Below are positions 19,926 to 64,000 of a stretch of 64,000 bases of DNA, one piece after another. The notes under the pieces were generated by a model. It did no database searches. It saw only the letters and a list, made by a program, of their open reading frames with translations, and was not told the origin of the DNA. Numbering within the stretch: the stretch's first letter is position 1; each line of letters starts with the position of its first letter. Origin of the DNA: Nitrospirota bacterium (GTDB lineage: Bacteria; Nitrospirota; Thermodesulfovibrionia; UBA6902); assembly GCA_016217725.1 (NCBI GenBank), contig JACRHB010000220.1, positions 11,970 to 75,969 on the forward strand. Direction: 5' to 3'. The translations under genes were made by a program, and so were the position numbers.

Positions 19926-20004
19926 CCGTCATTCCCGCTTGTCGGGAATCGAACGACTTATCACGCTGAAAGTAAAGAAAGATTCCGGACAAGCCGGAAT
20001 GACA
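19926..20004. mobile_element. MITE-like GTCATTCCCG element, copy 2
   Basis: ccgtcattcccgcttgtcgggaatcg...gattccggacaagccggaatgacag. Confidence 0.55.
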
Positions 20005-20039
20005 GAATTCAAATATTTGCATGCCGGGTTAATAATAAT

Positions 20040-23959: not shown

Positions 23960-24041
23960 GAGTTTATTTTACCTTTTATTTCGTTGATTTCTACCATAAA
24001 AATCCTTATCCTTAATGAAACAGTAAATTATGGAAAGATCC

Positions 24042-25115: not shown

Positions 25116-25284
25116 ATTTCAAAAACGATTTGATATTGTGTCGAAGGCAAATGAAGCGGCTGATGCGGATTTGGAAGCTGTTGAGAGGCAAAAGAGGGTT
25201 AGCAAGGCTTTCGTCTTTTTCAGAACTTTAAACTTTTATCAATTTTAAAGTAAAATTATCGAAGACAATTTTCAAGAGGAGATT

Positions 25285-29170: not shown

Positions 29171-30185
29171 GCCAAAGGAGAGGATCATGAAAAGAACATT
29201 TAAGGCGATTGAAATGGTACAAAATAAATGGAAGTTTTATGTGTTTAGTATAAAATCCGACTTGTTATACAAAATAGCTTATATCAGTAGGAGACACGAG
29301 AATAAGGAAGAAGGATATCAGCGAAATCTGTCAAAAAAACGCGCAAGAGAAATATATGATTATATTTTTACCTTACACGGTGTTATCCCCAATAATATTA
29401 TTCTGAACTTTGATACGAATCTAAATTATGATACAAAAAGTCAGACAATTTCCTTTAAAGATGATGAAAATATTGCGTGGATTATTGATGGTCAACATAG
29501 GCTGTATGGCTTGTCTTTAAGCAAAAAACCCATTGATGTTATGGTGGTAGCTTTTGAGAAATTAGATATACAAAATCAAGCAAAAATATTTAGGGTAATT
29601 AACTCCACCCAAAAAGGTGTTAATGCGTCACTTATCTATGATCTTATTGACTTGGTTAAAGATGCGAGTTTTCTTGAGGAACGTGCTCATGAACTTGCAA
29701 AAAAACTCAATAGCGACCCGGAGTCACCATGGTATATGCAAATAAAAATGTTGGGGATAGGGGCTGGCCTGATTTCTCAAAGCGCATTTGTAAATAACTT
29801 AATACTTTTGTTGGATGAAGAAAGACGGGCACCATTGCAGGTATATACAGAAGAAGAGCAATATGGCATATTAAAAAATTATTTCAATGCAGTCAAATAC
29901 TCATTCCCAAATGACTGGGGACAGGCGAATTCCTTACTCACTAAGACAATGGGATTTTACTCATTAATAGCCGTACTGCCAACTGTTTTACAAATGTGCT
30001 CAGGCAACTTTACGACTGATTCGGTAATTAAAATACTTGAACCAATAAAGGATTATAATTTTGCAAGTAGTGGACCATTGAAAGGCGTTTCCGGCAAGGC
30101 TGGGGTTGAGAGAATCACATCTGAAATAAACTCTCTTTTAACAGCAACAAGGAAATCAAAGAAGACGCCGATAATAAAGCTTTAA
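29160..30185 (+). CDS. DGQHR-domain protein (DndB/DpdB-like ParB-superfamily), island gene 5
   Basis: GYQRNLSKKRAREIYDYI ... WIIDGQHRLYGL: the diagnostic DGQHR motif, plus an FxxxN motif (FRVINSTQ); 11-nt overlap with gene 4. Confidence 0.8.
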   Translation: MLNKPKERIMKRTFKAIEMVQNKWKFYVFSIKSDLLYKIAYISRRHENKEEGYQRNLSKKRAREIYDYIFTLHGVIPNNIILNFDTNLNYDTKSQTISFKDDENIAWIIDGQHRLYGLSLSKKPIDVMVVAFEKLDIQNQAKIFRVINSTQKGVNASLIYDLIDLVKDASFLEERAHELAKKLNSDPESPWYMQIKMLGIGAGLISQSAFVNNLILLLDEERRAPLQVYTEEEQYGILKNYFNAVKYSFPNDWGQANSLLTKTMGFYSLIAVLPTVLQMCSGNFTTDSVIKILEPIKDYNFASSGPLKGVSGKAGVERITSEINSLLTATRKSKKTPIIKL

Positions 30186-30187
30186 TC

Positions 30188-31021
30188 ATGTTCCATAAAA
30201 TCGTTGCTAATTTTAGAGAAGTTAGTGGAGTGTGTGAAGGGTTTGTAAAAGATGCTGTCAGAACAAATCCTGCATTACCGTTATCTTTAATTACACATAA
30301 ATTCCAACCGTTTTATTCTAATGAGTTGAAAAATAAATTTTTCAAAGAAGTTAACCTTTATTTAGACAAGGCCATGTATCAATACATAATAAGTCGTTCC
30401 CTGTTGCATGAAGGTATTTTTTCTTGGGGAGCAGTAACACAATATTATGCCAATTTCTTTGCAATTTCTGGATTAATAAGGCTACATGAAAATGGATTTT
30501 CAAGGATAGGCAATTTAGATGTAGAGGTTCAACAGCAATCTGATATATATGAAATTAGAAAAACTAAAACAGAGGGACTACACAGAATTGTTTGGTCTAA
30601 ATTTTATGCCCTATACAAAGGGTTTGATTATAAGCCTCAGATCTTTTATACAGTCTATTCACCAATTAATAATAACAATTATTTTGAATCAGACAGGCGC
30701 AATGACATTAACTACAATCCAGCATCAGGATATCAAGAAATTTATCAAACGTATAGCACGGTGAAGTCTTTAATAAAAGAGCGCACAAAAGATGCCTATT
30801 CTGCGGACAAGATTGAATTAGCAAATGAATGGATTGATTCAGATACAAGAACTCAATACAGAATCAGATTGCTCGCAAATATTATTTCTGAAATAGACGC
30901 ACTTAGTCATTTCCCTACTCACGTCAAGGAACGATTAATAAATAGAGAGAAATTTATTCAACGATATGAAACGGACAAAAGATATCGGGTTCGTTTCTTA
31001 GGCTGGTTAACAGGTGAATAG
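30188..31021 (+). CDS. hypothetical protein (277 aa), island gene 6
   Basis: No recognisable motif; AT-rich codon usage as in the rest of the operon; 3-nt gap from gene 5 and 8-nt overlap with gene 7. Confidence 0.5.
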   Translation: MFHKIVANFREVSGVCEGFVKDAVRTNPALPLSLITHKFQPFYSNELKNKFFKEVNLYLDKAMYQYIISRSLLHEGIFSWGAVTQYYANFFAISGLIRLHENGFSRIGNLDVEVQQQSDIYEIRKTKTEGLHRIVWSKFYALYKGFDYKPQIFYTVYSPINNNNYFESDRRNDINYNPASGYQEIYQTYSTVKSLIKERTKDAYSADKIELANEWIDSDTRTQYRIRLLANIISEIDALSHFPTHVKERLINREKFIQRYETDKRYRVRFLGWLTGE

Positions 31022-32396
31022 AATGAATATACTTCTTGTTGAACCAGGTTACAAAAATAAATATCCACCTCTTGGTCTTATGAAAATATCTGCATTCCAC
31101 AAACAGCGCGGTGATAACGTACGTTTTATAAAGGGACTAAACAAAGAGGTCAAAGCACAAATGTGGGATAGAATTTATATAACCACCCTGTTTAGTTTTT
31201 ATTGGAATGAAACTATTAATACTATCAGATACTATGAATACAGCATACAAGACCCTCAGAATCTTTTTATAGGCGGGCCGATGGCAACGCTTATGTCAGA
31301 CGAAATAGAGAAAGAAACAGGATATAGGCCGGTAAAGGGATTACTGAATGAAAAAAGAAAATTGAGGTTGCCGAATGATTATAAAGTTGACAGCCTGGTT
31401 CCCGACTACAGCATCCTTGAACAAATAGAGTACAAGTATCCGGCATCAAACGCCTATTTTGCTCATGCAACAAGAGGCTGTATAAGAAAATGCCCGTTCT
31501 GCGCTGTTCCCAAAATTGAACCTTTTTATACAGATTATATCCCCTTAAAGAAACAGATAATAATGATTAATGAAAAATATGGAGAAAAGAAAGACCTTCT
31601 ATTGCTGGATAACAATGTCCTTGCATCTTCACAATTTGACAAAATAATTGATGAAATCAAAGAAGCGGGGTTTTATAGGGGAGCTAAATTAAATAACAGG
31701 AACAGATACGTAGACTTTAATCAGGGAATAGATCTGAGACTCCTTACGAAAGAGAAAATGAGGCTGTTGGCTGAACTTTCCATAAAGCCTTTGCGAATTG
31801 CCTTTGACCACATTAAATTGGAGAAGGAATACGTTAAAAGAGTAGAGTGGGCTTCTGAATTCGGAATAAACAATTTATCAAATTATATCCTATATAACTT
31901 TCATGACACTCCAGAAGATTTTTATAGACGGTTAGAAATAAACATTGAACTGAATGAAAGATTAGGGACTAAAATATTTTCATTTCCGATGAAATATATC
32001 CCCATAGATAATAGGGATCGAAAGCATAAAGGCAAGTATTGGAATCTTCGATACTTGAGAGGTATTCAATGTATTTTACAAGCCACACACGGAGTCGTAA
32101 GTCCCCAAAGAGAATTTTTTCATGCAGCATTCGGGAGAAACGTCGAAGCTTTCAAAAAGCTTCTTTTAATGCCTGATAACTATATTATCTTTCGCGAAAA
32201 TCACAAGAATAATGGTACTGCTGATTGGGCTAAGATATACGATTCCTTATCTAATGAGCAACAAAAGGAATTTCACGACATAGTTTTTGAGAATCAATTC
32301 AATAATGGATTGCTGTCGAAATATTCAAAGATAAATATTCTCTTAGCTCACTATAAGGTGCCGAAACAACAAGTTTCTCTAAAAGAGCTTTCTTAG
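31014..32396 (+). CDS. radical SAM enzyme with an N-terminal B12-binding-like (Rossmann) domain, island gene 7
   Basis: Canonical CxxxCxxC (ATRGCIRKCPFCAV); the N-terminus MNILLVEPGYKNKYPPLGLMKISAFHKQRGDNVRFI resembles the N-terminal domain of class-B radical SAM enzymes; ~34% GC. Confidence 0.7.
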   Translation: MNRMNILLVEPGYKNKYPPLGLMKISAFHKQRGDNVRFIKGLNKEVKAQMWDRIYITTLFSFYWNETINTIRYYEYSIQDPQNLFIGGPMATLMSDEIEKETGYRPVKGLLNEKRKLRLPNDYKVDSLVPDYSILEQIEYKYPASNAYFAHATRGCIRKCPFCAVPKIEPFYTDYIPLKKQIIMINEKYGEKKDLLLLDNNVLASSQFDKIIDEIKEAGFYRGAKLNNRNRYVDFNQGIDLRLLTKEKMRLLAELSIKPLRIAFDHIKLEKEYVKRVEWASEFGINNLSNYILYNFHDTPEDFYRRLEINIELNERLGTKIFSFPMKYIPIDNRDRKHKGKYWNLRYLRGIQCILQATHGVVSPQREFFHAAFGRNVEAFKKLLLMPDNYIIFRENHKNNGTADWAKIYDSLSNEQQKEFHDIVFENQFNNGLLSKYSKINILLAHYKVPKQQVSLKELS

Positions 32397-32604
32397 TGTA
32401 GAAAGATTTCCAACCTGACAACTATGGCAAGCCATAACACAGAATACAATCCACCCGGAGAAATAATGCAGGAGGAAAATCTTGACTAGGCAGGTAACCC
32501 CGAACAGATACGCCACCCTTATTGAACGTCTTGCGGACATTATCCATTTCGCATGGACAACCGCGCCCGCTTCTTGATATTTTCGTCGTCAAATAGCATG
32601 ATAT

Positions 32605-33777
32605 ATGACGACGATGGCGACAAAGGCGAAAAATCACGATGATATTTATATCGATAGAATATTGAGCCTGCCGGGGCTGTTGGAGAAAAAATCCTATTTC
32701 CTTTTCGGGCCCCGCCAGACGGGGAAATCGTCCCTTATCCGGCATACCCTGAAGGGCGCAAAGGTCTACGACCTCCTGGACACATCGATATTTCTGGCTC
32801 TGAGTCAAAACCCAGGCCGTCTGTCCCAGGAATTGAGCGCCGGAGACCGGATCGTGGTAATCGATGAAATACAGCGCCTGCCCATTCTGCTCAATGAGGT
32901 TCACCGGCTGATTGAAGAGAGAGGCCTTCGTTTTTTGCTCACCGGCTCGAGTGCCCGGAAGCTCCGCGGCGGCGGCGTGAACCTGCTTGGCGGGAGGGCG
33001 CGTACGAAAAATCTGCATCCTCTCACCTGCCGGGAGCTCGGGCGGCATTTCGACCTGTTCCGTGCAATCGAACGCGGCTTGCTGCCGTCCATATATTTTT
33101 CGGATGATCCACGCGCGGATCTTCGCGCCTATGCAGGCTCTTACCTGCAGCAGGAGATTATTGCCGAAGGGGCCGCCCGCAATGTGCCTGCCTTCAGCCG
33201 TTTCCTGAAGGTTGCCGCATTATGCAACGGCACGATCGTCAATTTTACTAATATAGCCAATGATGCCCAGGTGCCCCGCACGACAGTGTACGAGTATTTC
33301 GAGATCCTCAAAGACACTCTTATCCTCCACGAGCTTCCTGCCTGGCGCCGGTCATTAAGGCGCAAGCCTTTGGCCTCCTCGAAGTACTATTTTTTTGATA
33401 TCGGCATAGTGTCGGAGCTGCAGGGTCGAAGATTCAGGCCCGGCACGCCTGAATTCGGAGAGGCCTTTGAGACATATATTATGCATGAGCTCCGAAGCTA
33501 TATCGATTATATTTCTGCCGAGCCTCTCAGCTACTGGCGGTCGACGTCAGGTTTTGAGGTGGATTTCATCCTGGGCGATCATACGGCCATTGAGGTGAAG
33601 GCAAAAGAGAATGTATCGGTACAGGAGCTTAAATCGCTGCGTGCCCTTAAGGAAGAAAAGATATTGAAGCGCTACCTTTGTGTAAGTCTCGAATCCCGTA
33701 CAAGAACGGTCGACGGAATTATTATTCTGCCATACCGGAAATTTCTCGACGGCTTATGGAGCGGAGAGTATTCATGA
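32605..33777 (+). CDS. AAA-family ATPase (AAA_14 plus DUF4143 architecture)
   Basis: Walker A GPRQTGKS, Walker B VVIDEIQ; C-terminal DUF4143-like region; GC-rich (~60%). Confidence 0.85.
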   Translation: MTTMATKAKNHDDIYIDRILSLPGLLEKKSYFLFGPRQTGKSSLIRHTLKGAKVYDLLDTSIFLALSQNPGRLSQELSAGDRIVVIDEIQRLPILLNEVHRLIEERGLRFLLTGSSARKLRGGGVNLLGGRARTKNLHPLTCRELGRHFDLFRAIERGLLPSIYFSDDPRADLRAYAGSYLQQEIIAEGAARNVPAFSRFLKVAALCNGTIVNFTNIANDAQVPRTTVYEYFEILKDTLILHELPAWRRSLRRKPLASSKYYFFDIGIVSELQGRRFRPGTPEFGEAFETYIMHELRSYIDYISAEPLSYWRSTSGFEVDFILGDHTAIEVKAKENVSVQELKSLRALKEEKILKRYLCVSLESRTRTVDGIIILPYRKFLDGLWSGEYS

Positions 33778-33836
33778 TCCTGGGCAAGCTGTGGTAAAAT
33801 CGCTTTGTCCGGTTAAGCCCGGAGAGAGGAGGGCGT

Positions 33837-34367
33837 ATGGAAATCAAAATCAACAAAAGCACATTGTCACTGGTTGAAGGCGATATTACAAAACAGGACA
33901 CGGACGCAATAGTGAATGCGGCGAATAAAACCCTTCGCGGCGGAGGCGGCGTTGACGGGGCGATCCACAGGGCGGGCGGCCCGAAGATCCTTGAGGAATG
34001 TATAAAGATTGGCGGCTGCGAGACCGGCGAGGCTGTGATAACCACGGGCGGGAATCTCAAGGCCAAATATGTAATCCATACGGTCGGTCCGGTTTACAGG
34101 GACGGCCTGCACAATGAGCCGAAGCTTCTTGAGAACGCTTATAGAAACAGTCTGAAACTTGCTTCGTCGAAGGGTATAAAAAGCATCGCCTTCCCGTCAA
34201 TAAGCACGGGAGCTTACGGTTATCCATTGGAAGATGCAGCGGAGATCGCATTAAAGACCGCGATTAATTATCTCTGGGAGCATCCCGACATAGAACTGGT
34301 CCGTTTTGTCCTTTTCGGACAGAAGACGCTTGAGGTTTATGAGAAGAAACTGAAGCCACTGGTTTAG
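33837..34367 (+). CDS. macro-domain protein (O-acetyl-ADP-ribose deacetylase, YmdB/MacroD-like)
   Basis: 176 aa; DIT..DAIVNAAN..L.GGGGVDGAIHRAAG and ...AFPSISTGAYGYP motifs. Confidence 0.9.
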   Translation: MEIKINKSTLSLVEGDITKQDTDAIVNAANKTLRGGGGVDGAIHRAGGPKILEECIKIGGCETGEAVITTGGNLKAKYVIHTVGPVYRDGLHNEPKLLENAYRNSLKLASSKGIKSIAFPSISTGAYGYPLEDAAEIALKTAINYLWEHPDIELVRFVLFGQKTLEVYEKKLKPLV

Positions 34368-34451
34368 CAGGAAACTCAAAGTGTCATGCTGAACTTGTTT
34401 CAGCATCTAAAGACCCTGAACCAAGTTCAGGGTGACAAAATGGGACAAGAT

Positions 34452-39313: not shown

Positions 39314-39625
39314 TTGCTGAAAAAACCTTTTATAGTAAGATTAAATTAATTTAAGAGTTACCGCCGCCTTATGTCAAGCATTTTAGAATCCATTGCCTCG
39401 ATTCCCTGAATGAGAACGGGAATGTTGATGGTTAATTCAAAGCGTCATTTTACTTTGTGTTTTATACGGAAAATCATCCGAAAAACTTGAGTAAAGCAAC
39501 TATGAATGAAGGATTTGAAAAAACCGGAACATATAAAGCGTCACGTTTAATTATAAACATTTAACCATAAATTAACAACAGTGAATTTGCTCGTATCCCT
39601 TCAGTGGAGCGTAGGGTGTTTAATT

Positions 39626-39731
39626 CCCCTCTTTGACAAAGAGGGGTTAGGGGAGATTTTTAAATAATTTAATCTAAAAATCCCCCTACATCCCCAAATC
39701 CCCCTACATCCCCCTTTTCCAAAGGGGGATT
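39626..39731. repeat. CCCCTC/GAGGGG hairpin-cluster repeat, copy 2
   Basis: cccctctttgacaaagaggggttaggggagatttttaaat...aaaaatccccctacatccccaaatccccctacatcccccttttccaaagggggatt. Confidence 0.7.
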
Positions 39732-40704: not shown

Positions 40705-41526
40705 ATGTCGGACCATACCAACCATGAGCATGATCACCATCATGACCACCACCAGGAACACGAGCATCACCATGAGCATGAGCACCAGCACGATCATCAT
40801 CATGACCATGATCATAAACCCGTAAAGGTTAAATTCAGAAGCTTCAAGATGGACAGGGCTTTTGCCTTTGACCCTAAGAAGGGCGAGAAGGGAATAATAA
40901 CCTATACTATAACGGAGCCTGCGAGGATAAGCATAAAGGTAATTAAAAAAGGGACGAGAGAGCTGTACCTTTCGACTATATTAAACTGGGAAATGCGCGA
41001 TGCGGGGACGCATACCGAGTACTGGGACGGTAAGGATTACAGCGGTAATATCATTGAAGACCTGTCTTCGGTTTTAATGGTGATGGAAGGAGAGCCGATG
41101 TCTACGTTCAAACCCGGCGCTTATTCCGTCGAAGGCCTGTCGGACGAAGAGATCATACACGGCCATAAATGGGGACATCCTCATAATTACTATCAGGAAG
41201 GCACAAATGTAATACCGGTGATCTCGATAACTTCCGTCAAAGACGGAGACGTTCTTTCAGGTATTGTGAAAGTTGAATCAAGGCTTGAAACGAGCGAAAG
41301 AGGCTACGGTGAAAAAGTCGGCTACGGCGTCAGGTACTATTTAAATAATATTCTTGTGACCGAAGAATTTTATGACTCAAAGAGCGACGGTAAATTTTCG
41401 TATGACATCGATACGACCGCCTTCCCCGACGGGGAATATATGCTGTACGTAGGGATGTGCGATCATCATCAGCACACAACCTCAAGGGGCTGCAAGGTTA
41501 AGATAAACAACAATTCCGGGAATTGA
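40705..41526 (+). CDS. His-rich (N-terminal HDHHHDHH..HEHEH..) Ig-like/FlgD-like beta-sandwich protein
   Basis: The N-terminal 37 aa are >60% His/Asp/Glu; the rest is paralogous to 42027..42737 (FDPKKGEKGIITYTITEPARISIKV / FDPALGKPATISYKLTKAGTIRLRI; YWDGKDYSGNIIED / QWDGRDASGNIIDN). Confidence 0.6.
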   Translation: MSDHTNHEHDHHHDHHQEHEHHHEHEHQHDHHHDHDHKPVKVKFRSFKMDRAFAFDPKKGEKGIITYTITEPARISIKVIKKGTRELYLSTILNWEMRDAGTHTEYWDGKDYSGNIIEDLSSVLMVMEGEPMSTFKPGAYSVEGLSDEEIIHGHKWGHPHNYYQEGTNVIPVISITSVKDGDVLSGIVKVESRLETSERGYGEKVGYGVRYYLNNILVTEEFYDSKSDGKFSYDIDTTAFPDGEYMLYVGMCDHHQHTTSRGCKVKINNNSGN

Positions 41527-41861: not shown

Positions 41862-41896
41862 AGTCTGTTTATAAATGGCATAAAACGTTCAACAAG

Positions 41897-41977
41897 GTGT
41901 CATTCCCGCAGTCTGTTGAGCGGGAATCCAGAGAATACAAAGATAGATTCCGGCTTAAGGACTGCCGGAATGACAGA
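41897..41977. mobile_element. MITE-like GTCATTCCCG element, copy 3
   Basis: ggtgtcattcccgcagtctgttgagcgggaatccag...gattccggcttaaggactgccggaatgacagac. Confidence 0.55.
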
Positions 41978-42943: not shown

Positions 42944-43099
42944 CCGTGATCCGTGTCCGTTTAACGTGACCGTAAAAGAGGAAGGATCAATGAACAATGT
43001 GCAATTAACAATTAAAATCTCGCTTCCGCAATTGCTCATTGATAATTGTTCATTGTTAATTGTTTTTACGGACACGTTAACCGGACACGGTTCACAAGA
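42944..43099. repeat. ~155-bp long hairpin element (GTGTCCG / CAATGAACAATTG words) immediately upstream of cbiM; partner copy at 46001-46165 downstream of cbiO
   Basis: Outer arms cgtgatccgtgtccgtttaacgtgaccgtaaaa / ttttacggacacgttaaccggacacggttcac; inner palindromes caattaacaatt and caatgaacaat/attgttcattg. Confidence 0.7.
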
Positions 43100-43111
43100 A
43101 AGGAATACCCC

Positions 43112-46000: not shown

Positions 46001-46165
46001 ACTCATACGTGTCCGGTTAGCGTGTCCGTGTCCGTAAAACAATTATCAATGAACAATTACCAATGAGCAATTGCGGCAATAGTTTTTTAATTGTTAATTG
46101 CACATTGTTCATTGATCATTCCTCTTTTACGGTCACGAAAAACGGACACGGATCACGAAATCGGT
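46001..46165. repeat. ~160-bp long hairpin element downstream of cbiO (partner of 42944-43099)
   Basis: acgtgtccggttagcgtgtccgtgtccgtaaaacaattatcaatgaacaatt...aattgttaattgcacattgttcattgatcattcctcttttacggtcacgaaaaacggacacggatcacg. Confidence 0.7.
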
Positions 46166-46889: not shown

Positions 46890-47557
46890 TCGAAGGCATA
46901 GAAAAAAGAAAGAGCATCAGGGCCTTCAAGCCTGATCCGGTGCCGAGGAAAGCCCTTGAAAAAGTCTTGCAAGCCGCTGTTGCCGCGCCTTCCAAAGGCA
47001 ATTCGCAGATATGGGAGTTCGTCGCCATTACCGGTAATGAGCTGAAAGATATCAAGGTGATGCTCGGGGAGCTGCTTAAAACCGACTTTATCCCTTTAAT
47101 GAAGCTAACGGATGAAGAAGCGCCAAGCCCCGCCCTTGAAAAGGCAAAGATCAGGAGCAGCCGGAATAAAGAAGAGATGTCAAAGATATTAAATCCGATG
47201 GGCCTTGATTTTGATGACTTTATGCTTGAAGGGACTTTCAGATTCTTCGATGCCCCCGCAGCCGTTATGGTTTTCATAGAGGATATTTATTTGAAAAACC
47301 TTCCCCATCTTTTAAGTGTCGGGGCGGCGGTCCAAAATATGCTGTTGTCCGCGCAGACGCTCGGGTTAGGCACGTGCTGGATAGGAGGCGTATGGAGATA
47401 TACAAAGCAGATAAGAAAGATCCTTGGAATACCTGATAACAAGATGCTGGTCTCATCGGTAGCCATAGGATATCCTGATAACGACTCTCCGATAAACAAA
47501 TATAAATCAGGCAGGGACTCTATCGACGATTTGGTTCAATGGAAGGGATTTGAATAA
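46880..47557 (+). CDS. nitroreductase-family (FMN-dependent) oxidoreductase
   Basis: N-terminal RKSIRAFKPDPVP...L..AAVAAPSKGNSQIWEFV and C-terminal CWIGG nitroreductase signatures. Confidence 0.85.
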   Translation: MDIIEGIEKRKSIRAFKPDPVPRKALEKVLQAAVAAPSKGNSQIWEFVAITGNELKDIKVMLGELLKTDFIPLMKLTDEEAPSPALEKAKIRSSRNKEEMSKILNPMGLDFDDFMLEGTFRFFDAPAAVMVFIEDIYLKNLPHLLSVGAAVQNMLLSAQTLGLGTCWIGGVWRYTKQIRKILGIPDNKMLVSSVAIGYPDNDSPINKYKSGRDSIDDLVQWKGFE

Positions 47558-47660
47558 ATCCCCCTACATCCCCCTTTTTCAAAGGGGGACCTTCCCCTCT
47601 AACAAGAGGGGTTAGGGGTGTGTTCCCCTCTTTTGCAAAGAGGGGTGAGGGGAGATTTTC
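47556..47660. repeat. CCCCTC/GAGGGG hairpin-cluster repeat, copy 3 (starts inside the nitroreductase stop codon)
   Basis: aaatccccctacatccccctttttcaaagggggaccttcccctctaacaagaggggttaggggtgtgttcccctcttttgcaaagaggggtgaggggagattttc. Confidence 0.7.
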
Positions 47661-47683
47661 AGATCAAATAAAGGAGCAGTATT

Positions 47684-48400
47684 TTGTCTCTGACAATATT
47701 ATTAAGATCGCCTGACGGCATCGTCATGGCGGCTGACAGCAGGGTGACGGAGGGCTATACTCTGCAGGGACCGAAGACCAAGGACGACTCCGTTAAGTTC
47801 ATTCGGTTGAGTGATGATTTCGGGGTCATGACGCACGGTCTTTACGACATAGGCACTGACGGGATCAATGCATTAAAAGAGAAGGTCGGCGGAAGCGGGA
47901 ATGGGATTTCATCTTTAGCAGAGCTTATCGGCAATGCGAAGAAAATCTTTGCAGAGGTAAATAATGAATGGTCCGTGAAGAACCCGGAAGTAAAACGAAG
48001 GGACAAAGATACCGGTTTCATAATTGGCGGGTTCGACAGACGGGAAGCGGCGTTTAAAGTCTATAACTTTGAAAGCCCTGAATTTGCTCCGAAACCGGTG
48101 GCCGGCAATTTCTTCATCGCAGGCCAGTGGCAGATAGCCAGGTTTTTGCTGATGAAATTGAACGGCGGTAAAAAGAATATCAATTCCCTTAAAAAGCTGT
48201 CAGCCGTTCTGCTTACGGCAACGGCTTCGGTCGACAAAACAGTCGGCGGCCCCATGCGTATTGCCTCCATTACGGCATCAGAAGGATTTCGATGGGTCGA
48301 TGACGAGGAGATGAAAAAGCTGGCGGACTTTAATGCGTCGTTCCGCAGGGTATTTCAGGAGACCCTCGAAGCGTCTCTGAACGCAGTTTCAAAAAATTAG
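47684..48400 (+). CDS. proteasome beta-subunit-like Ntn-hydrolase fold protein (HslV/20S-beta/Anbu-like)
   Basis: N-terminus MSLTILLRSPDGIVMAADSRVTEGY matches the proteasome-type consensus T-[IL]-h-h-x-x-x-DG-hhhAAD-[ST]-R-x-T; 238 aa. Confidence 0.6.
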   Translation: MSLTILLRSPDGIVMAADSRVTEGYTLQGPKTKDDSVKFIRLSDDFGVMTHGLYDIGTDGINALKEKVGGSGNGISSLAELIGNAKKIFAEVNNEWSVKNPEVKRRDKDTGFIIGGFDRREAAFKVYNFESPEFAPKPVAGNFFIAGQWQIARFLLMKLNGGKKNINSLKKLSAVLLTATASVDKTVGGPMRIASITASEGFRWVDDEEMKKLADFNASFRRVFQETLEASLNAVSKN

Positions 48401-48567
48401 CCACGAATAAACACGAATGAACACGAAGGAATAAAAAAACAAAAAATGAATTTGGACGCAGATAAACGCAGATTATCAAGATTTAAAGAAACAAACTTAT
48501 CTGCGTATATCCGCGAAAATCTGCGTCCTAATTTTATTCGAGTTAATTCGAGTTAATTCGTGGCTAA
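48397..48567. mobile_element. ~170-bp MITE-like element with 12-bp perfect TIRs TTAGCCACGAAT/ATTCGTGGCTAA; second copy at 63155-63323
   Basis: Perfect TIRs; internal inverted repeats (ggacgcagat...atctgcgtcc) and ACACGAAT word repeats; ~85% identity between copies; the left TIR contains the TAG stop of 47684..48400. Confidence 0.7.
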
Positions 48568-48611: not shown

Positions 48612-50120
48612 ATGAACGTGATCTTGGTTCAACCCGCGACTTCGGACAGGGGATTTATTCATCTGGGATTGGGCTTTATTGCAGCCTCCCTGGAGCAAAG
48701 GGGGCATAAGGTAAGCATCCTCGATCTCGGGATAGAAGGCGAGTCCTCAAAAAAGATAAGAAGGATAATCCAGGAGGCGGCCCCGGAAGTGGCGGGGATA
48801 ACGGCGCTTACCCCTACTTATCCGACGGCGCTCAGGATGGCGCAGTTGATAAGGGAGATAAATCCCCGGTGCATAACCGTCTTCGGAGGGACTCATCCCA
48901 CTATATTGACCGAGGAGGTCCTTAATGAGCCCTTCGTGGACATTGTGGTAAGGGGCGAAGGGGAGATAACCATGTGCGAAATATTGGACGCCCTGAAGGA
49001 CGGAAAAGGCCTTTCGAGTATTTCAGGCATTGTCTATAAGGAAAACGGGAAAACGGTCTATAACCCCGACAGGCCTTTCATAGAAGACCTGGACACTCTC
49101 CCGCCGATACCCTGGCATCTCTTTAAAGTGGAAAAATATACCGGCAACCTGAACGGGAGAAGGGCGGTGGGCCTCTCCGCTGCCAGGGGATGTCCTTTCA
49201 GTTGTGTCTTTTGCTACAGAGGCCCGGCTGCCGGCAAGGTCGTAAGGTACTGGAGCCCTGAAAGGGTCGTAAAGGAGGTCAAGCGCGTTAAGGAAAAATA
49301 TAATATAACGGCCTTCCACTTCTGGAACGACGTATTTACTTACGACAAAAAGTGGGCGATCACCCTGTGCGATATGATCATAAAGGAGAAACTGGACATT
49401 GAATGGGACTGTCAGACCAGGGCGGACCTGATCAATGAGGAAGTATTGAGGAAGATGAAAGAGGCGGGCTGCACCGCGATAATGTTAGGCGTGGAGAGCG
49501 GGAGCAATGAGATCCTGAAGCACGTGAACAAGAAGCTGACCAAAGAGCAGATATATGACTCCTTCCAATTGCTCCATCAGGTGGGTTTTGAGACCACCGC
49601 AACTTTTACAATGGGTCTTCCCTGGGACACCAAAGAGACCATCCAGGAAACCATCGATTTCGCCAAGGCGATAAACCCGAGTTTTGCGATGTTCTACGTA
49701 GCCACTCCGTTCCCCGGCTCCCCCATCTGGGAGATCTGCCTTCAGAAAGGGATACCGCTTTCGAGAGACTGGGAGAATTACAGGATCATTCCTTTTGAGA
49801 TAGACCTCGATAAATTCGCCCCTGTCTTTGATACGTCCAGATTGTCCGTAGAGGATTTAAAGAGGTTCATCAAGACCGCCCAGATAGAATTTCAGGTCGG
49901 CAGATTTAAAAAGGGGCAGAGATTAAGGGGTCTGAAAAATATCTACGAGATCTTCGCCTTGATATTCAGACGGAGCAAATCGGTGACAAAGCTGATGCAA
50001 TTGATTTTCAGGGTGCTCGGGGATACGCTCTATCTCATCAGAATAAAGTGCAGAAGTGCAAAAGTGCAAAAGAGCAATAGCGCAGAAGAGCAGAAGAACA
50101 AAAGTGCAAAAGAGCAATAG
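48612..50120 (+). CDS. B12-binding domain radical SAM protein; the C-terminal tail is encoded by a word-repeat
   Basis: MNVILVQP...HLGLGFIAASLEQRGHKVSILD B12-like domain; CxxxCxxC (ARGCPFSCVFCYR); the last ~25 aa (KCRSAKVQKSNSAEEQKNKSAKEQ) read through the GTGCAGAAG repeat. Confidence 0.85.
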   Translation: MNVILVQPATSDRGFIHLGLGFIAASLEQRGHKVSILDLGIEGESSKKIRRIIQEAAPEVAGITALTPTYPTALRMAQLIREINPRCITVFGGTHPTILTEEVLNEPFVDIVVRGEGEITMCEILDALKDGKGLSSISGIVYKENGKTVYNPDRPFIEDLDTLPPIPWHLFKVEKYTGNLNGRRAVGLSAARGCPFSCVFCYRGPAAGKVVRYWSPERVVKEVKRVKEKYNITAFHFWNDVFTYDKKWAITLCDMIIKEKLDIEWDCQTRADLINEEVLRKMKEAGCTAIMLGVESGSNEILKHVNKKLTKEQIYDSFQLLHQVGFETTATFTMGLPWDTKETIQETIDFAKAINPSFAMFYVATPFPGSPIWEICLQKGIPLSRDWENYRIIPFEIDLDKFAPVFDTSRLSVEDLKRFIKTAQIEFQVGRFKKGQRLRGLKNIYEIFALIFRRSKSVTKLMQLIFRVLGDTLYLIRIKCRSAKVQKSNSAEEQKNKSAKEQ

Positions 50121-50212
50121 TGCAGCGCCGGGAAGACTGACTTTCATTGTTTTCCCTTTTGCACTTCTGCACTTTTGTACTTTTGCACTTCTGCACTTTT
50201 GTACTTTTGCAC
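50048..50212. repeat. long hairpin of GTGCAGAAG/TGCAAAAG words (left arm coding, right arm reverse complement)
   Basis: gtgcagaagtgcaaaagtgcaaaagagcaatagcgcagaagagcagaag... / ...ttttgcacttctgcacttttgtacttttgcacttctgcacttttgtacttttgcac. Confidence 0.7.
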
Positions 50213-50233
50213 TAAAGAATCAAGAAAAATTTA

Positions 50234-51448
50234 ATGGACTACAACAAATTAAAAGAAGCCGTCATCACTGAAATCGATAAGCTGGCGGAAGAGATGAAGG
50301 CCGTTGCAAAGGCCATTCATGAAAAACCCGAAATAGGTTATCAGGAATACGAAGCCTCACGGCTCCTCTGCGGCTTTCTCGAAAAAAACGATTTTAAAGT
50401 GAAGCGCAATATCGCAGGGATGGAGACGGCTTTTGCCGCCTCCTATCCTGAAAAGGCGGACGGTCCGACAATCGCCTTGTTGGCCGAATATGACGCCCTG
50501 CCCGGCCTCGGGCACGGATGCGGACATAACCTCATCGGCACTGCGAGCGTCGGGGCTGCCGTCGGATTAAGTAAGGTTTTACCGAAGCTGAAAGGAAGAA
50601 TAGCTGTAATGGGCTGTCCTGCGGAAGAGGCCGGGATAGACAACGCAGGGGGGAAGGTCCGGCTGATCAAAAAAGGATCATTCAAAGATATCGACGCCGC
50701 GTTCATCTTTCATCCCTTCCCCATGACGACGGTCGGGGGAGAGACCACAACGCTGCTCGGGCTTGAATTTAATTTTAAAGGTAACCCCGCACATGCCGCA
50801 GGAAATCCCTGGGACGGGATCAACGCGCTGGACGGTGTATTGCTGACCTTCAACGCGATCAACGCCCTCAGGCAGCATATACGCGACGGCGTGCGCATTC
50901 ACGGCATCATAACCCACGGAGGCGACGCCCCGAATATAGTGCCGGAAAAGGCGTCCGCGCGTTTCTTTCTCCGCACGGAGAATAAAGAGTCTCTGCTCGA
51001 GATAATTCAAAAGGTCAAGGCCTGCGCCGAAGGGGCGGCGACGGCGACGGGGACCAAGCTTGAGGTCAATACTTTCTGCAATCTCTATGACTCAATGAAG
51101 AGCAATTCCGTTCTCGCAAGTATCCTCGAAAAGAACCTGAACGCACTCGGCTTGAGCGTTGAAGGCAGGAAAAAGGGGAAAGGCTCCACGGATTTCGGAA
51201 ACGTGACAAGGGTTGTGCCTGCCTGCGAGCTGGGCCTCAGGCTCGGAAACGGCATCGTCCCGCACACGAGGGAGTTTTTGCACGCGGCGAATTCCGAAGA
51301 GGGCTTCAAGGTAATGATGCAGGGAGCAAAGGTGCTGGCCTTAAGCGCGCTGGACCTTCTCTACTCGGACGGCTTACTTGAGAAGGCGAAAAAGGAATTT
51401 GAAGGAGTGCAGAAGTGCAACAGTACAAAAGTGCAAAAGGAAAAATAA
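50234..51448 (+). CDS. M20-family amidohydrolase (M20D; hippurate hydrolase / aminobenzoyl-glutamate utilisation-like)
   Basis: 404 aa; ...ALLAEYDALPGLGHGCGHNLIGTASVGAA... metal-binding region; the C-terminal tail (VQKCNSTKVQKEK) is encoded by the repeat. Confidence 0.85.
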   Translation: MDYNKLKEAVITEIDKLAEEMKAVAKAIHEKPEIGYQEYEASRLLCGFLEKNDFKVKRNIAGMETAFAASYPEKADGPTIALLAEYDALPGLGHGCGHNLIGTASVGAAVGLSKVLPKLKGRIAVMGCPAEEAGIDNAGGKVRLIKKGSFKDIDAAFIFHPFPMTTVGGETTTLLGLEFNFKGNPAHAAGNPWDGINALDGVLLTFNAINALRQHIRDGVRIHGIITHGGDAPNIVPEKASARFFLRTENKESLLEIIQKVKACAEGAATATGTKLEVNTFCNLYDSMKSNSVLASILEKNLNALGLSVEGRKKGKGSTDFGNVTRVVPACELGLRLGNGIVPHTREFLHAANSEEGFKVMMQGAKVLALSALDLLYSDGLLEKAKKEFEGVQKCNSTKVQKEK

Positions 51449-51517
51449 AGAAGGACCATCTTCCGGAAGCCGGTCTTCTGAACTTTTGATCTTCTGCTCT
51501 TTTGCTCTTTTGCACTG
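51407..51517. repeat. GTGCAGAAG/TGCAAAAG word-repeat hairpin, copy 3
   Basis: gtgcagaagtgcaacagtacaaaagtgcaaaagg...tcttctgctcttttgctcttttgcac. Confidence 0.65.
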
Positions 51518-51526
51518 TTTGAAAAA

Positions 51527-58638: not shown

Positions 58639-60057
58639 ATGAAGATAACGTTGGTATATCCGGGGATCGCGCAGATCGGCTTCGGCAGCTTCGGCCGTGG
58701 CACGCCGACTACGAACCTTATGAGCCTCGGCCTCGGCTATCTCGGGGCGTCTATAAAAAAGAATACAAAACACGAAGTAGACGTCCTAGACCTGAGGAAG
58801 ATGAAGGGATGGGATGACTTCGGCAGGGAGCTGAAAGAGAGGTCGTGCGACATTGCCGGCATTTACACGAATACGGTTAACTTCGAATATGCGATGAAGT
58901 GCGCGGAAATCACCCATAAGATGGGCAAGACGGTAATTGCCGGAGGCCCCCACGCAACGCTCGCCCCTCAGGAGCTTCTCGATACGGGCCACGTCGACCA
59001 CGTCATCACGGGTGAAGCCGAGTTTACCATCGTTGACGTGCTTGAAAAATTTGACAGGGGTCTCGGGATGGAAAAAATTATCCAGGGTCAGCCCGTGGAA
59101 AACCTTGACGAGCTGCCGTTTCCGGACAGGGACCTGTTCAATCTGGACAAACGTCTCAAATACCTTCCGGGCATATTCCCCTTCCCTCCGAGATACGCGG
59201 GCGTGCTTGCGAGCAGGGGCTGCGGCTTCAACTGCAAGTTCTGTCAGCCCCTTGAAAGGAAGATTTTCGGCAAGAGGCTTAAATTTCGCTCTGTAGACAA
59301 CATCATAAAGGAAGTCGCGCAGTTGAAAGAGCGCTACGGCGTCGAGTTCATCATGTTCCAGGACGACCAGCTTACGCAGAACAGGGAATGGGTGCTCGAC
59401 CTGAGCGCCGAGATGAAAAAAGTAGGCATAGACTGGGGCGCGCTCGCAAGGGTGGATACGATAAACGAGCACGTGGTCAAGAGCATGAAGGAGGCGGGAT
59501 GTCTCGTGCTCCAGTTCGGCTTTGAAAGCGGCTCGCAGAAGATACTCGACTTCCTGAGGAAGAGGGCCGGGGTCGAGCAGGCGGTAGAGGCGGCAAGGCT
59601 CTGCCATGAAAACGGCGTGCTCATCTTTGCGAATTATATGATGGGCATCCCGACCGAGACAGAGGAAGACGTTGAAGCGACTTACGAGCTTATGAAAAAA
59701 ATTAACCCTGAGATCCATGCGCTGAGCTATTTCTCACCGATACCTGGAAGCGACCTCTACGATTACTGCAAGGAAAGAGACCTGATAAACGTGACTTCTT
59801 ACGACATGTATGCGCGGGGCGCCGTCGAGAACAAGCTGAAAGGGATAGATTACAAGGCGCTCGACCGTATGAAGAAGAAGATCGAAAAATGCACCCCCGC
59901 ATGGTATCAGGAGAGCTATTACGCCTCATGCGTTATGAAACGGTGGAGGAAGCTCGCAAAACAGGGGCATACCGTACACATGATAAAGGAGCTCGTGACC
60001 CACACGCCTATGCTCGACAGTACGGTGGGGGCGGTCTACAGGATGGTGAAAAGATAG
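58639..60057 (+). CDS. B12-binding domain radical SAM protein
   Basis: ITLVYPGIAQIG...LMSLGLGYLGASIKK...; CxxxCxxC (SRGCGFNCKFCQP). Confidence 0.85.
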   Translation: MKITLVYPGIAQIGFGSFGRGTPTTNLMSLGLGYLGASIKKNTKHEVDVLDLRKMKGWDDFGRELKERSCDIAGIYTNTVNFEYAMKCAEITHKMGKTVIAGGPHATLAPQELLDTGHVDHVITGEAEFTIVDVLEKFDRGLGMEKIIQGQPVENLDELPFPDRDLFNLDKRLKYLPGIFPFPPRYAGVLASRGCGFNCKFCQPLERKIFGKRLKFRSVDNIIKEVAQLKERYGVEFIMFQDDQLTQNREWVLDLSAEMKKVGIDWGALARVDTINEHVVKSMKEAGCLVLQFGFESGSQKILDFLRKRAGVEQAVEAARLCHENGVLIFANYMMGIPTETEEDVEATYELMKKINPEIHALSYFSPIPGSDLYDYCKERDLINVTSYDMYARGAVENKLKGIDYKALDRMKKKIEKCTPAWYQESYYASCVMKRWRKLAKQGHTVHMIKELVTHTPMLDSTVGAVYRMVKR

Positions 60058-60064
60058 AGTTGTT

Positions 60065-60165
60065 ATCCCCTCTCCCTTGATGGGAGAGGGTTAGGGGGAG
60101 GGTGAATCAACAGAATGTCTGAATCACCCTCCCCTTAATCCCCTCCCATCAAGGGAGGGGAAAAG
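60065..60165. repeat. CCCCTC/GAGGGG hairpin-cluster repeat, copy 4 (~45-bp arms)
   Basis: cccctctcccttgatgggagagggttagggggagggtgaatcaacagaatgtctgaatcaccctccccttaatcccctcccatcaagggagggga. Confidence 0.7.
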
Positions 60166-60205
60166 ATAAGAGACACATAGGAACGTCTGCGGAATTGAAG
60201 TTAAA

Positions 60206-61510: not shown

Positions 61511-61575
61511 TTGATTATTTGCCACAGAGAACACAGAGGACACAGAGGAAAATAGAAGATGAGCGCGTGCAGAGA

Positions 61576-61619
61576 TACCCTCTCCCTTGACGGGAGAGGG
61601 TTAGGGAGAGGGTGAATCA
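61576..61619. repeat. CCCTCTCCC/GGGAGAGGG hairpin (single arm of the family) plus upstream (ACAGAGGA)n tandem words at 61522-61550
   Basis: accctctcccttgacgggagagggttagggagagggtgaatcat. Confidence 0.6.
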
Positions 61620-63154: not shown

Positions 63155-63323
63155 TAGCCACGAATGAGCACGAATAAACACGAAGGAATAAAAAACAAAA
63201 AATAAATTTGGACGCGGATGAACGCAGATTATCAGGATTTAAAAAACCAAACTCATCTGCGTATATCTGCGAAAATCTGCGTCCTGATTTTATTCGTGAT
63301 AATTTGTGAAAATTCGTGGCTAA
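63155..63323. mobile_element. MITE-like element with TAGCCACGAAT TIRs, copy 2
   Basis: atagccacgaatgagcacgaataaacacgaagg...ggacgcggatgaacgcagatt...atctgcgtatatctgcgaaaatctgcgtcc...aattcgtggctaat. Confidence 0.7.
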
Positions 63324-63368
63324 TAAGGTTGTTAGGGTAATCACAGTATGAAAGGAGATTTCAACAAC

Positions 63369-64000
63369 ATGCCGATTGACCAAAAAGACGGCGGGAGGAA
63401 GTATTCCGTCCTGCTCGCAATATTGATATTGTTTCACGTGACAAGCAATTTGATAATCGTGACCGCAGACAATACTCCGCTGCTCTGGGACGGGGGCGAT
63501 TACTTTTACAAGAGCCTGAAATATTATGACGTCTTTAGAAACTTCGACTCCGGCTTCTTTTCGAGGTTCAATGACGTAAGCCATTACAGACCGCCTCTGC
63601 TTATGCTTACGTCGCTGCCTCTTTATGCCGTATTCGGCAGGTCGGTCGACACGGCTATCATGACCAACACGCTTTATCTCATAATCCTCGTGCTTTCGGT
63701 TTACGGGCTCGGCAGGAGGCTGTATAGCAATGAGGTCGGCTTTTTGTCCGCCGTCCTGGTCATGTTTTTCCCCATCATCTTCGGCTTGAGCAGGTCGTAC
63801 TGGCAGGATTTCCCTGTTACCGCGATGGTCTCACTCAGTGTGTATCTGCTCCTGAGGACCGATTATTTCAGATGCAGAAAATACTCCCTGCTCTTCGGCA
63901 TATCGTTAGGCCTCGGCATGCTTACGAAGTGGATCCATTTTGTATTTCTGACAGGCCCTTTCCTTTACATTTTATTTCTGTCGTTGAAGCAGGACGTAAA
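63369..64000 (+). CDS. GT-C fold membrane glycosyltransferase (ArnT/PMT_2-like), 5' partial (runs off the window)
   Basis: AAAGGAG RBS 11 nt upstream of ATG 63369; open frame to the window end; TM helices and a ...WDGGDYFY... first-loop acidic motif. Confidence 0.55.
   Translation, partial: MPIDQKDGGRKYSVLLAILILFHVTSNLIIVTADNTPLLWDGGDYFYKSLKYYDVFRNFDSGFFSRFNDVSHYRPPLLMLTSLPLYAVFGRSVDTAIMTNTLYLIILVLSVYGLGRRLYSNEVGFLSAVLVMFFPIIFGLSRSYWQDFPVTAMVSLSVYLLLRTDYFRCRKYSLLFGISLGLGMLTKWIHFVFLTGPFLYILFLSLKQDV

Follow-up and report, generated by a model that had tools for sequence, protein, structure and literature searches.

We analysed a 64,000-nt stretch of Nitrospirota bacterium DNA (contig JACRHB010000220.1, positions 11,970 to 75,969; hereafter the window) that carries two copies of a short palindromic repeat, each placed at the end of a gene. 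A sequence-only reading of this DNA had described them as a miniature inverted-repeat transposable element (MITE)-like unit with perfect 12-bp terminal inverted repeats (TIRs), and the positions it gave are borne out to within 1 nt: copy A occupies 48398-48566 (169 nt, reading TAGCC...GGCTA) and copy B 63155-63322 (168 nt). Together with its flanking T and A, copy A has the perfect 12-bp inverted repeat that had been reported (TTAGCCACGAAT / ATTCGTGGCTAA, 48397-48408 and 48556-48567), but in copy B the perfect repeat extends over only 11 bp, pair 12 being A/A. The two copies are identical at 150 of 170 aligned positions (88%, in line with the earlier estimate of about 85%), and their likeness ends at the element borders, beyond which the flanks are unrelated. 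Both copies contain the internal inverted repeat GGACGCAGAT...ATCTGCGTCC and the repeated CACGAAT words that had also been pointed out. Neither copy has an open reading frame (ORF) of more than about 36 codons in its 168-169 nt, bounded by inverted-repeat termini, and no third copy lies on either strand of the window.

Each copy folds into a single long imperfect hairpin, with predicted RNA energies of -56.8 kcal/mol for copy A and -62.9 kcal/mol for copy B. The corresponding stability z scores are -8.3 and -8.6, with 0 of 200 shuffles equally stable, and DNA folding parameters agree. The hairpin is made up of two nested imperfect hairpins of 10-nt words, the inner one sitting in the loop of the outer. 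The outer hairpin has three words per side, of the form xxxCACGAAT / ATTCGxGxxx (in copy A, 48397-48427 pairs with 48537-48567), and the inner one has two to three words per side, of the form xxxCGCAGAT / ATCTGCGxxx (48454-48473 pairs with 48499-48528). What had been called a 12-bp TIR is no more than the base of an arm that runs for 31 nt and comprises three 10-nt words. The earlier picture of a MITE-like unit remains valid insofar as the repeats are non-coding, repeated, inserted and located at gene ends, but a single TIR-bounded element it is not, since a CGCAGAT hairpin is nested within a CACGAAT hairpin. The parts of the two copies are:

48397..48427, + strand: copy A outer left arm, T-TAGCCACGAAT-AAACACGAAT-GAACACGAA; words start at 48402, 48412 and 48422
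48428..48453, + strand: copy A A-rich spacer between outer and inner left arms, unpaired in the fold
48454..48473, + strand: copy A inner left arm, GGACGCAGAT-AAACGCAGAT
48474..48498, + strand: copy A apical loop of the inner hairpin, from the fold
48499..48528, + strand: copy A inner right arm, ATCTGCGTAT-ATCCGCGAAA-ATCTGCGTCC; middle word bulged in the fold
48537..48567, + strand: copy A outer right arm, TTCGAGTTA-ATTCGAGTTA-ATTCGTGGCTA-A
63155..63184, + strand: copy B outer left arm, TAGCCACGAAT-GAGCACGAAT-AAACACGAA
63210..63229, + strand: copy B inner left arm, GGACGCGGAT-GAACGCAGAT
63255..63284, + strand: copy B inner right arm, ATCTGCGTAT-ATCTGCGAAA-ATCTGCGTCC
63293..63322, + strand: copy B outer right arm, TTCGTGATA-ATTTGTGAAA-ATTCGTGGCTA

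In each left arm, all three frames are closed by stop codons spaced 10 nt apart: TAG 48398, TAA 48408 and TGA 48418 in copy A, and TAG 63155, TGA 63165 and TAA 63175 in copy B. We considered three-frame stops as a design rule of such arms and rejected it; the rule is true of both window copies, yet it describes only 5 of the 64 left arms assembled below, with 2.7% in shuffles. The left arm of copy B also reads ATG AGC ACG AAT AAA CAC GAA (MSTNKHE), an N-terminus typical of the GxxExxY genes discussed later. Arm-coded starts of this kind (MSTNKHE / MNTKE) are present in the window copies, but they are dictated by the words and provide no independent evidence.

Scans of the repeats and the window for known elements and signals returned little. 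At gathering thresholds, Rfam 15 gave 0 matches and no rRNA across the whole window, and an E-value search with copy A gave only a generic long-hairpin match to the plant miRNA precursor MIR8562 (39.5 bits against a gathering threshold of 211). Neither copy contains a Rho-independent terminator (short GC-rich stem, 3-8-nt loop, T run) on either strand, which speaks against the duplicated terminator that had been offered as an alternative to a mobile element. A promoter scan found nothing inside either copy, and the element had no BLASTN match among PLSDB plasmids. A Pfam scan of about 60 window ORFs and a hidden Markov model (HMM) search of the six-frame translation detected no transposase, integrase or GxxExxY protein; the lack of a transposase had already been noted from the sequence. 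Readings as an integron attC site, a clustered regularly interspaced short palindromic repeat (CRISPR) array or a riboswitch were dropped, as there is no integrase, spacer array or conserved ligand-type fold.

Insertion at operon junctions

The genes on either side of the two copies are:

47684..48400, + strand: upstream gene of copy A, proteasome-like; no Pfam match on the protein itself, homologues carry PF00227 (Proteasome)
48612..50120, + strand: downstream gene of copy A, B12-binding radical S-adenosylmethionine (SAM) protein; starts 211 nt past the upstream gene, against 7 nt in the related locus L160
61612..63138, + strand: upstream gene of copy B, GT-C/PMT-like glycosyltransferase; stop 16 nt before copy B
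63348..64000, + strand: downstream gene of copy B, PMT_2 glycosyltransferase; begins 25 nt past the element and continues beyond the window

The sequence-only reading had taken the TAG of the left TIR for the stop codon of the gene upstream of copy A, and rightly so: ORF 47684-48400 ends at TAG 48398-48400, within the left terminus of the element, and its stop is one of the left arm's three-frame stops. The 16-nt gap it had placed between the GT-C gene and copy B is likewise correct. Its description of the first of these genes as proteasome-like draws support from the homologues, but not from the protein's own Pfam scan, which is empty.

A relative of this operon is found on the Nitrospiraceae contig Ga0104751_1002827 (loci L160 and L170), where the two upstream genes share 67% and 82% amino acid identity with those of the window. 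The gene order is common to both: cbiQ, ABC, a hypothetical gene, nitroreductase, the proteasome-like gene, the B12-binding radical SAM gene and M20, and further on a radical SAM gene, a CapK-like gene, GT-C and PMT. In the relative the intergenic spacers measure 35, 59, 7, 7, 5, 2 and 52 nt, and the matching junctions of the window measure 170, 126, 211, 113, 148, 101 and 209 nt, each of them containing a palindrome of one family or another. At the copy-A junction, the L160 protein ends ...LNAVSADNCFLQDNEKINR* and is followed by 7 nt and the next ATG, with no element; the window protein is shorter, its C-terminus ...LNAVSKN* being closed by the TAG of the element. Because the related operon has a 7-nt spacer at this junction, the elements are insertions, in keeping with the sequence-only reading.

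Other relatives carry different palindromes at these junctions. In L161, an unrelated GTCATTCC-type palindrome follows the stop at the copy-A junction, and the contig ends there. The copy-B junction in L170 is filled by another hairpin, built of 7-nt words and starting at the same position, after AAAAAAC[A/G]GGAA. Such differences indicate that the junctions gain, lose and swap hairpins over a short evolutionary scale. At L170 3500-3575, the last codons of the GT-C gene (...QKTGSGK*) are read from the left arm of a small 7-nt-word hairpin (words GGAAGTG GGAAGTA AGAAGTG AGAAGTA ... ACTTCCTGCTTATCACTTTTACTT), another case of a hairpin providing a C-terminus and stop. A 1672-nt Logan contig with the radical SAM gene is broken inside copy A and again inside the next palindrome, as expected if both flanking repeats are multi-copy.

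A 21-mer junction specific to the composite, ATCTGCGTCCTNATTTTATTCG, has a single match in the JGI metagenomes (L122), adjoining parB. Here the outer arms run straight into the last inner word, the join falling at a CGAA micro-homology. On the evidence of its sequence, L122 is an internal-deletion derivative of the window composite, at a third site and in a different metagenome. It is flanked by TT...TG, not TA. The check for a target-site duplication that the sequence-only reading had suggested brought none to light: TA is missing at L122 and at most family members, where the outer bases co-vary as inverted repeats. In the window, the palindromic TA alone fits both copies, the relatives used for comparison being only 67-82% identical at the amino acid level.

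Word hairpins and GxxExxY genes across phyla

The pattern CACGAATNNNCACGAATNNNCACGAA, with 20 specified bases, is calculated to yield about one chance match (2 x 596 Gb / 4^20), and it occurs in at least 120 stretches of genome contigs. Among the matches listed, it is distributed over Verrucomicrobiota, Planctomycetota, Chloroflexota, Bacteroidota, Acidobacteriota, Gamma- and Betaproteobacteria, Nitrospirota, Spirochaetes, Hydrogenedentota, a Thermoplasmata archaeon metagenome-assembled genome (MAG) and others. At most listed loci the array forms the 5' arm, and a complementary array the 3' arm, of one hairpin. De-duplication of the matches listed left 64 complete hairpins, both window copies included, with loops of 3-55 nt (n = 32), 71-292 nt (n = 26) and 376-408 nt (n = 6). 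Arms were recognised by at least two CRCRRAT words at a 10-nt period with a downstream complement; the window copies have such arms, in the register and with the spacers of the 62 other hairpins. The word variants CACGAAT, CGCAGAT, CACGGAT, CGCGAAT and CGCGGAT differ by purine transitions only (CRCRRAT) and have in common the 10-nt period and the spacers GGA/GAA/AGA/AAA, which identifies the outer and inner hairpins as diverged members of one superfamily. CACGAAT-word and CGCAGAT-word hairpins each also occur alone, in distant phyla.

The two arms of these hairpins vary together. Pairing holds for 86.2% of cells across 57 arm pairs (80.9% in shuffles), and double changes affect 127 cells against 58.5 +/- 7.3, a count reached by 0 of 500 shuffles, although the pairing is inflated by the choice of each right arm as the best match to its left arm. 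Spacer triplets and the bases outside the first word vary jointly between arms, the pairs just outside 'CC' being A-U in 29 cases, G-C in 15 and U-A in 10. The outermost bases accordingly form inverted rather than direct repeats (GAACC...GGTTC, GATCC...GGATC, TTAACC...GGTTAA, TTAGCC...GGCTAA), which speaks against a target-site duplication. The TTAGCC...GGCTAA ends seen in the window recur in MAGs of Acidobacteriota, Planctomycetota and Bacteroidota.

Viral contigs contain the inner-type words as well, with 25 stretches of CGCAGAT arrays, many of them complete hairpins, and the ends GGACGCAGAT...TCTGCGTCC are seen both in a viral contig and in an Anaerolineae MAG. In the IMG/VR contigs of loci L123-L147, CGCAGAT arrays are common, often one-armed and immediately upstream of phage genes, and a single viral contig can contain several complete hairpins (e.g. 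L131, L132 and L140). Phages may be vehicles of the CGCAGAT elements.

The longest loops contain genes. All six hairpins with 376-408-nt loops among the matches listed encode GxxExxY proteins of 125-132 aa (about 127 aa), assigned by PF13366 PDDEXK_3 (E down to 6e-41) and TIGR04256 (E about 1e-40), with a range of 1e-31 to 1e-41; L019 and L108 have further GxxExxY genes directly beside hairpins. The sequence-only reading had looked to a full-length partner encoding a transposase. Longer relatives with the same ends and an internal gene do exist, but that gene specifies a protein of about 127 aa with the GxxExxY signature and a PD-(D/E)XK fold, and the IS630/Tc1 or IS200/IS605 transposase that had been envisaged is not what the partners carry, GxxExxY being present in every gene-sized loop among the matches listed.

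In these cassettes, the start codon and first residues of the GxxExxY gene are written by the words of the left arm: MDTNKHE corresponds to ATG GAC ACG AAT AAA CAC GAA, and MKPRMDTNKHE to AAACCACGAATGGACACGAATAAACACGAA. An arm-type start, M[DNH][TA][DN], is found in 101 of the 120 nearest 90% protein clusters, and 34 of 150 diverse 50% representatives start with M followed by DTN, NTN, NAN, DTD, NTD, DAN, DAD or HAD. Several diverse representatives contain MNAD, the peptide that CGCAGAT words encode. The family is very large, with at least 8000 clusters at E < 1e-10 and 16,404 representatives (50% identity) at E < 1e-3; a protein-guided search of viral contigs for GxxExxY loci returned one locus. 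An AlphaFold2 (AF2) model of a GxxExxY protein has a mean confidence (pLDDT) of 94.8, falling low only over the first 10 residues, which the arm encodes. Among solved structures the closest folds are generic PD-(D/E)XK nucleases of the lambda exonuclease, Cas4 and Hjc type, at modest similarity (TM about 0.5), and the D...(D/E)xK residues are conserved in GxxExxY proteins. The GxxExxY profile matched no PDB sequence, i.e. there is no solved relative by sequence. In the literature the family is recorded as 'function unknown', with 'multiple transfers, mixed clades' (PMC3424549). Literature searches for the arm sequences, arm peptides and family names returned no description of the hairpin arms, the arm-coded N-terminus or the ORF-less derivatives.

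Individual cassettes resemble the window copies in how they meet their neighbours. In Desulfobacter postgatei (CM001488.1, L149 1501-1990), a GxxExxY cassette is flanked by an hsdM-like ORF and a Fic gene; its left arm is repeated after the ORF, giving the layout arm-ORF-arm-loop-arm, and the TGA of the upstream hsdM-like ORF overlaps the cassette ATG (ATGA; ATGAAACCACGAATG). In L157 and L158, the TAG of TTAGCACGAAT provides the stop of the upstream aldehyde dehydrogenase gene, as happens to the gene before copy A, and a degenerate CGCAGAT-coded start (MNADGK) has CACGAAT-type arms on its outside, with the two word types in the order seen in the window. Between these two loci, which come from two samples, the right arm arrays show a 38-nt indel. 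In L156, a GxxExxY gene lies between degenerate CGCAGAT arms.

One locus connects the cassettes with hairpins lacking a gene. L018, from a Planctomycetota MAG, has TTTAGCCACGAAT...ATTCGTGGCTATA ends, with termini as in the window element, and a 142-nt loop reading MSTNSKNIIYKELSYKIVGLAM|ILNFAKKSFEYERFVI*, in which about 20 N-terminal and about 15 C-terminal GxxExxY residues are joined in frame. The remnant is supported by BLASTP segments of 1e-7 and 3e-7 to the GxxExxY protein P0168 and by an HMM match at 1e-7. L018 is an ORF-less form derived from a cassette by internal deletion, which is the classical origin of MITEs. Both window copies lack a GxxExxY ORF between the arms starting in the left arm, and any detectable remnant of one, which places them as ORF-less relatives of the cassettes. 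A second strong inverted repeat lies within the loop in 8 of 33 mid-size loops, so nesting is recurrent.

Weighing the origin of the window repeats

The reading we favour, with a probability of roughly 0.55, is that the window repeats are composite, non-coding, selfish palindromic elements, MITE-like and ORF-less, related to GxxExxY hairpin cassettes. It builds on the anatomy of the repeats, their insertion relative to the compact operon of the relative, the family relationship, the ORF-bearing relatives and the deletion derivatives, all of which are established above. By analogy, the window elements would stand to the cassettes as a MITE stands to its transposon. The arms would be the cis-acting part, as a DNA cruciform, a single-strand hairpin or three phased protein-binding sites; the spacing of the three words in each arm by one helical turn points to a small oligomeric protein bound in phase or to a cruciform/hairpin substrate. 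The DNA break would be supplied in trans by a GxxExxY nuclease whose gene lies at another place in the genome, and host repair or recombination would then copy the element, preferring gene ends and existing hairpin loops. Insertion into such loops and gene ends would explain both the nesting and the replacement of hairpins at one site. For this enzymatic part, in which GxxExxY mobilises the hairpins in trans, our confidence is tentative. At the transcript level, a stem-loop of -57 to -63 kcal/mol in a polycistronic mRNA would, by analogy, be a likely RNase III substrate or 3' stabiliser uncoupling the flanking genes, and in full-length cassettes, where the AUG is buried in the stem, stem processing could control translation.

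A wider version of this reading we would put at somewhat below even odds. GxxExxY genes and word-hairpin arms would together form a previously undescribed class of selfish cassettes that crosses phyla and includes phage-borne copies, and the window hairpins would be their non-autonomous progeny. The arm words would serve in three ways, as mobilisation site, as nuclease binding site or cruciform, and as gene start and N-terminus. The progeny would colonise gene junctions, replace each other there and rewrite the 3' ends of host genes.

Several observations weigh against the favoured reading. Mobilisation by GxxExxY is something we infer purely, and the 64-kb window has no GxxExxY gene. L018 is the only clear ORF-deletion intermediate. 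The remnant search that detected it at 1e-7, as a positive control, found no GxxExxY remnant in the other 33 mid-size loops, the window's two included (all E > 1), so that many ORF-less hairpins may never have held a gene. Only three sites of this composite were found, and neither the window copies nor L122 nor the family members yielded a target-site duplication. In L153, a syntenic GxxExxY gene stands without arms, the arms having been lost. The choice of right arms by best match also counts here, as does the spectrum of mismatches, which lacks an RNA-level signature (G.U(T) 55 against A.C 51; strand polarisation per hairpin p = 0.51). We do not claim the RNA fold as the selected form, as the mismatch spectrum shows no G.U tolerance.

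The strongest competitor, rather unlikely in our judgement, places the hairpin first and the gene second. The hairpins would be the primary mobile or recombinogenic units, or landing sites, whose loops capture varied cargo; the window elements would never have held a gene, and GxxExxY would be a passenger or a loop-targeting homing gene and not the mobiliser. The great diversity of loop contents, including the 33 of 33 mid-size loops free of a GxxExxY remnant and the nested hairpins in 8 of 33, fits this proposal, as do the varied layouts (arm-ORF-arm-loop-arm in D. postgatei, hairpin then ORF in L019) and the different hairpins that related genomes carry at the same junction. It accounts less well for the large GxxExxY subfamily whose start codon and N-terminus lie in the arm and not in the loop, a placement indicating that arm and gene have long evolved together, or for L018, which derives an ORF-less form directly by deletion.

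That the repeats are classical MITEs, i.e. deletion derivatives of a DDE-transposase insertion sequence (e.g. IS630/Tc1-like, TA-duplicating) moved via their 11-12-bp TIRs, is improbable. Perfect terminal repeats of that length, TA on either side of GCC...GGC in both window copies, a size of about 170 bp, AT-rich insertion sites and the non-coding content are what one would expect of such elements. However, TA is itself palindromic and extends the inverted repeat in copy A (TTAGCC/GGCTAA), the homologous L122 element has TT...TG instead, and TA occupies this position in only about a third of members, with flanks that co-vary in inverted orientation. Gene-sized loops among the at least 120 loci always hold GxxExxY and never a transposase, and the window lacks one too. 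In a broader comparison, bacterial MITEs such as Correia/NEMIS of Neisseria and IS630-type elements are multi-copy, and like the window elements they are non-coding, measure 100-200 bp and form a long TIR hairpin in the co-transcribed mRNA; they likewise lie at gene ends and can supply stops. MITEs arise from longer elements through internal deletion, an origin paralleled by L018 and L122. The window elements differ in having no demonstrable target-site duplication, in longer relatives that encode a 127-aa GxxExxY protein and not a DDE transposase, in a 'TIR' that is the base of a word array of variable word number, and in consisting of two nested hairpins.

Equally poor odds, if not slightly worse, attach to a repetitive extragenic palindrome (REP) or REPIN moved as a single-stranded hairpin by a REP-associated tyrosine transposase (RAYT; IS200/IS605-type Y1). 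In REPIN-RAYT systems, the non-autonomous hairpins are presumably mobilised by a dedicated nuclease or transposase from another locus. The window elements form hairpins just past gene ends, in a genome with many palindrome families that are nested or mosaic as in bacterial interspersed mosaic elements (BIMEs), and they show no target-site duplication, as IS200/IS605-type chemistry predicts. REP/BIMEs are likewise extragenic palindromes downstream of genes, with several families and mosaic clusters per genome. Their architecture and size are nevertheless different: REP hairpins measure 20-40 nt with a conserved GTAG-type 5' tetranucleotide, unlike 30-nt arms that are arrays of 10-nt words. A Y1 (HUH) transposase is absent from the window and from the hairpin loops examined, and the words are common across phyla, whereas REP families are species-specific.

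Highly improbable is a non-mobile structure (terminator, attenuator or mRNA-processing site) that the host duplicated or kept to regulate glycosylation and radical SAM operons: a very stable stem-loop in polycistronic units, a ribosome-binding site kept downstream and pairing preserved in both copies despite 12% divergence would suit it, but there is no terminator-like site in either copy and no Rfam family at its threshold, the orthologous compact operon does without the element, unrelated hairpins replace it in other relatives, and the same arms stand beside unrelated genes in many phyla.

Two further systems are similar in part. The intervening sequences (IVSs) of 23S rRNA are regarded as selfish, and their sporadic distribution is attributed to horizontal transfer; they measure about 430-450 nt, their complementary termini pair into a stem of about 28 bp that RNase III cleaves, and the loop encloses a small ORF, which tends to decay (PMC4990558). 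IVSs with an S23p/four-helix-bundle ORF (Coxiella burnetii, Leptospira, Salmonella) are like the GxxExxY hairpin cassettes in size and layout, and the cassettes resemble IVSs transferred from rRNA to mRNA. They differ in lying in 23S helices 25 and 45 and not at mRNA gene junctions, in an ORF that is a four-helix bundle where the cassette ORF is PD-(D/E)XK and the window copies have none, and in stems that contain no 10-nt word arrays and do not encode the ORF start. Database family notes sometimes link GxxExxY and four-helix-bundle genes to 23S IVSs. Rickettsia palindromic elements (RPEs) settle within coding regions or at their ends and join the reading frame. Similarly, the TAG of copy A ends the upstream ORF, and a neighbouring AAGTGCA-word palindrome adds 23 codons to the radical SAM ORF; RPEs, by contrast, insert in frame within genes of one genus, and there is no likeness in sequence or architecture. 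As for the GxxExxY family itself (TIGR04256; PF13366 PDDEXK_3), the ORFs of the full-length relatives are bona fide members, and the window elements are without such a gene.

Small palindromes tend to be set aside as REP or MITE clutter peculiar to one species, but the 170-bp repeat described here has been traced to words common to more than 10 phyla and to viral contigs. The word arrays in turn bound a very large protein family (at least 16,000 clusters at 50% identity) whose function the catalogues give as unknown. GxxExxY as a protein family and palindromic non-autonomous repeats were already known; for the hairpin arms, the arm-coded start and the ORF-less relatives, the literature searches gave no precedent. 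If the link is causal, GxxExxY proteins would gain a role as nucleases acting on their own hairpin arms, a large fraction of the 'hypothetical' peptides called from arms (IRVHSW- and ICVHLR-like) would be accounted for, and the remodelling of operon junctions and gene 3' ends would be clarified. A single operon here has palindromic insertions at seven successive junctions, two of which alter the C-terminus of the upstream protein. On the practical side, such repeats break short-read assemblies.

Other palindromes and genes of the window

The genome is unusually rich in palindromes and word arrays at gene junctions. A palindrome of 8-nt words (AAGTGCAx / xTGCACTT) occupies 50045-50213 and is also found at 51397-51519 and 5501-5583, with copies flanking the M20 peptidase gene. 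The radical SAM ORF 48612-50120 enters it by 23 codons (...YLIRIK|CRSAKVQKSNSAEEQKNKSAKEQ), and its counterpart in L160 ends ...YLIRIKLANRNQ. AAGTGCA arrays in viral contigs were rejected as hairpins, being iteron-like direct arrays. A CCCTC/GAGGG-type palindrome at 60057-60159, with related copies near 4461-4554 and 61575-61619, is flanked by the 9-nt direct repeat GAAAAGATA at 60048-60056 and 60160-60168; at this site L170 has a single GAAAAGATAA with the next gene directly after. The 9-nt repeat looks like a true target-site duplication of this repeat family.

Around the cbiM-cbiQ-cbiO operon, 42945-43100 and 46036-46157 contain two 122-nt copies (90%) of a nested palindrome with outer arms of CGTGTCCG/ACGGACACG words and inner arms of CAATGAACAATT words; the L160 spacer at the second site is 35 nt. 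Paired TCCCCCTTTTTCAAAGGGGGA / TTCCCCTCTTTGCAAAGAGGGG hairpin clusters lie at 39624-39729 and 47556-47671, the second of which occupies the junction between the nitroreductase and proteasome-like genes (59 nt in L160). Further intergenic palindromes or word arrays are located at 3161-3213 and 11653-11708, 6603-6640 and 41894-41931, 19925-20006, 34382-34437, 9414-9449, 13048-13119 and 61523-61547, and their types include TTAGTTG 7-nt words, GTCATTCCCGC...GCGGGAATCC, TGTCATGCTGAACTTGTTTCAGCA, TGACTTC x5, GAGTTAA x6 and CACAGAG words.

Elsewhere in the window, the region at about 24000-34400 is a defence-like island encoding Schlafen/AlbA_2, HATPase_c_4/HTH fragments, an SNF2-family helicase, a DndB-like protein, a radical SAM protein, a DUF4143 AAA ATPase and a Macro-domain protein, together with several ORFs lacking a Pfam match. 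ORF 40705-41526, also without a Pfam match, has a histidine-rich low-complexity N-terminus (MSDHTNHEHDHHHDHHQEHEHHHEHEHQHDHHHDHDH...) and possibly encodes a metal-binding protein.

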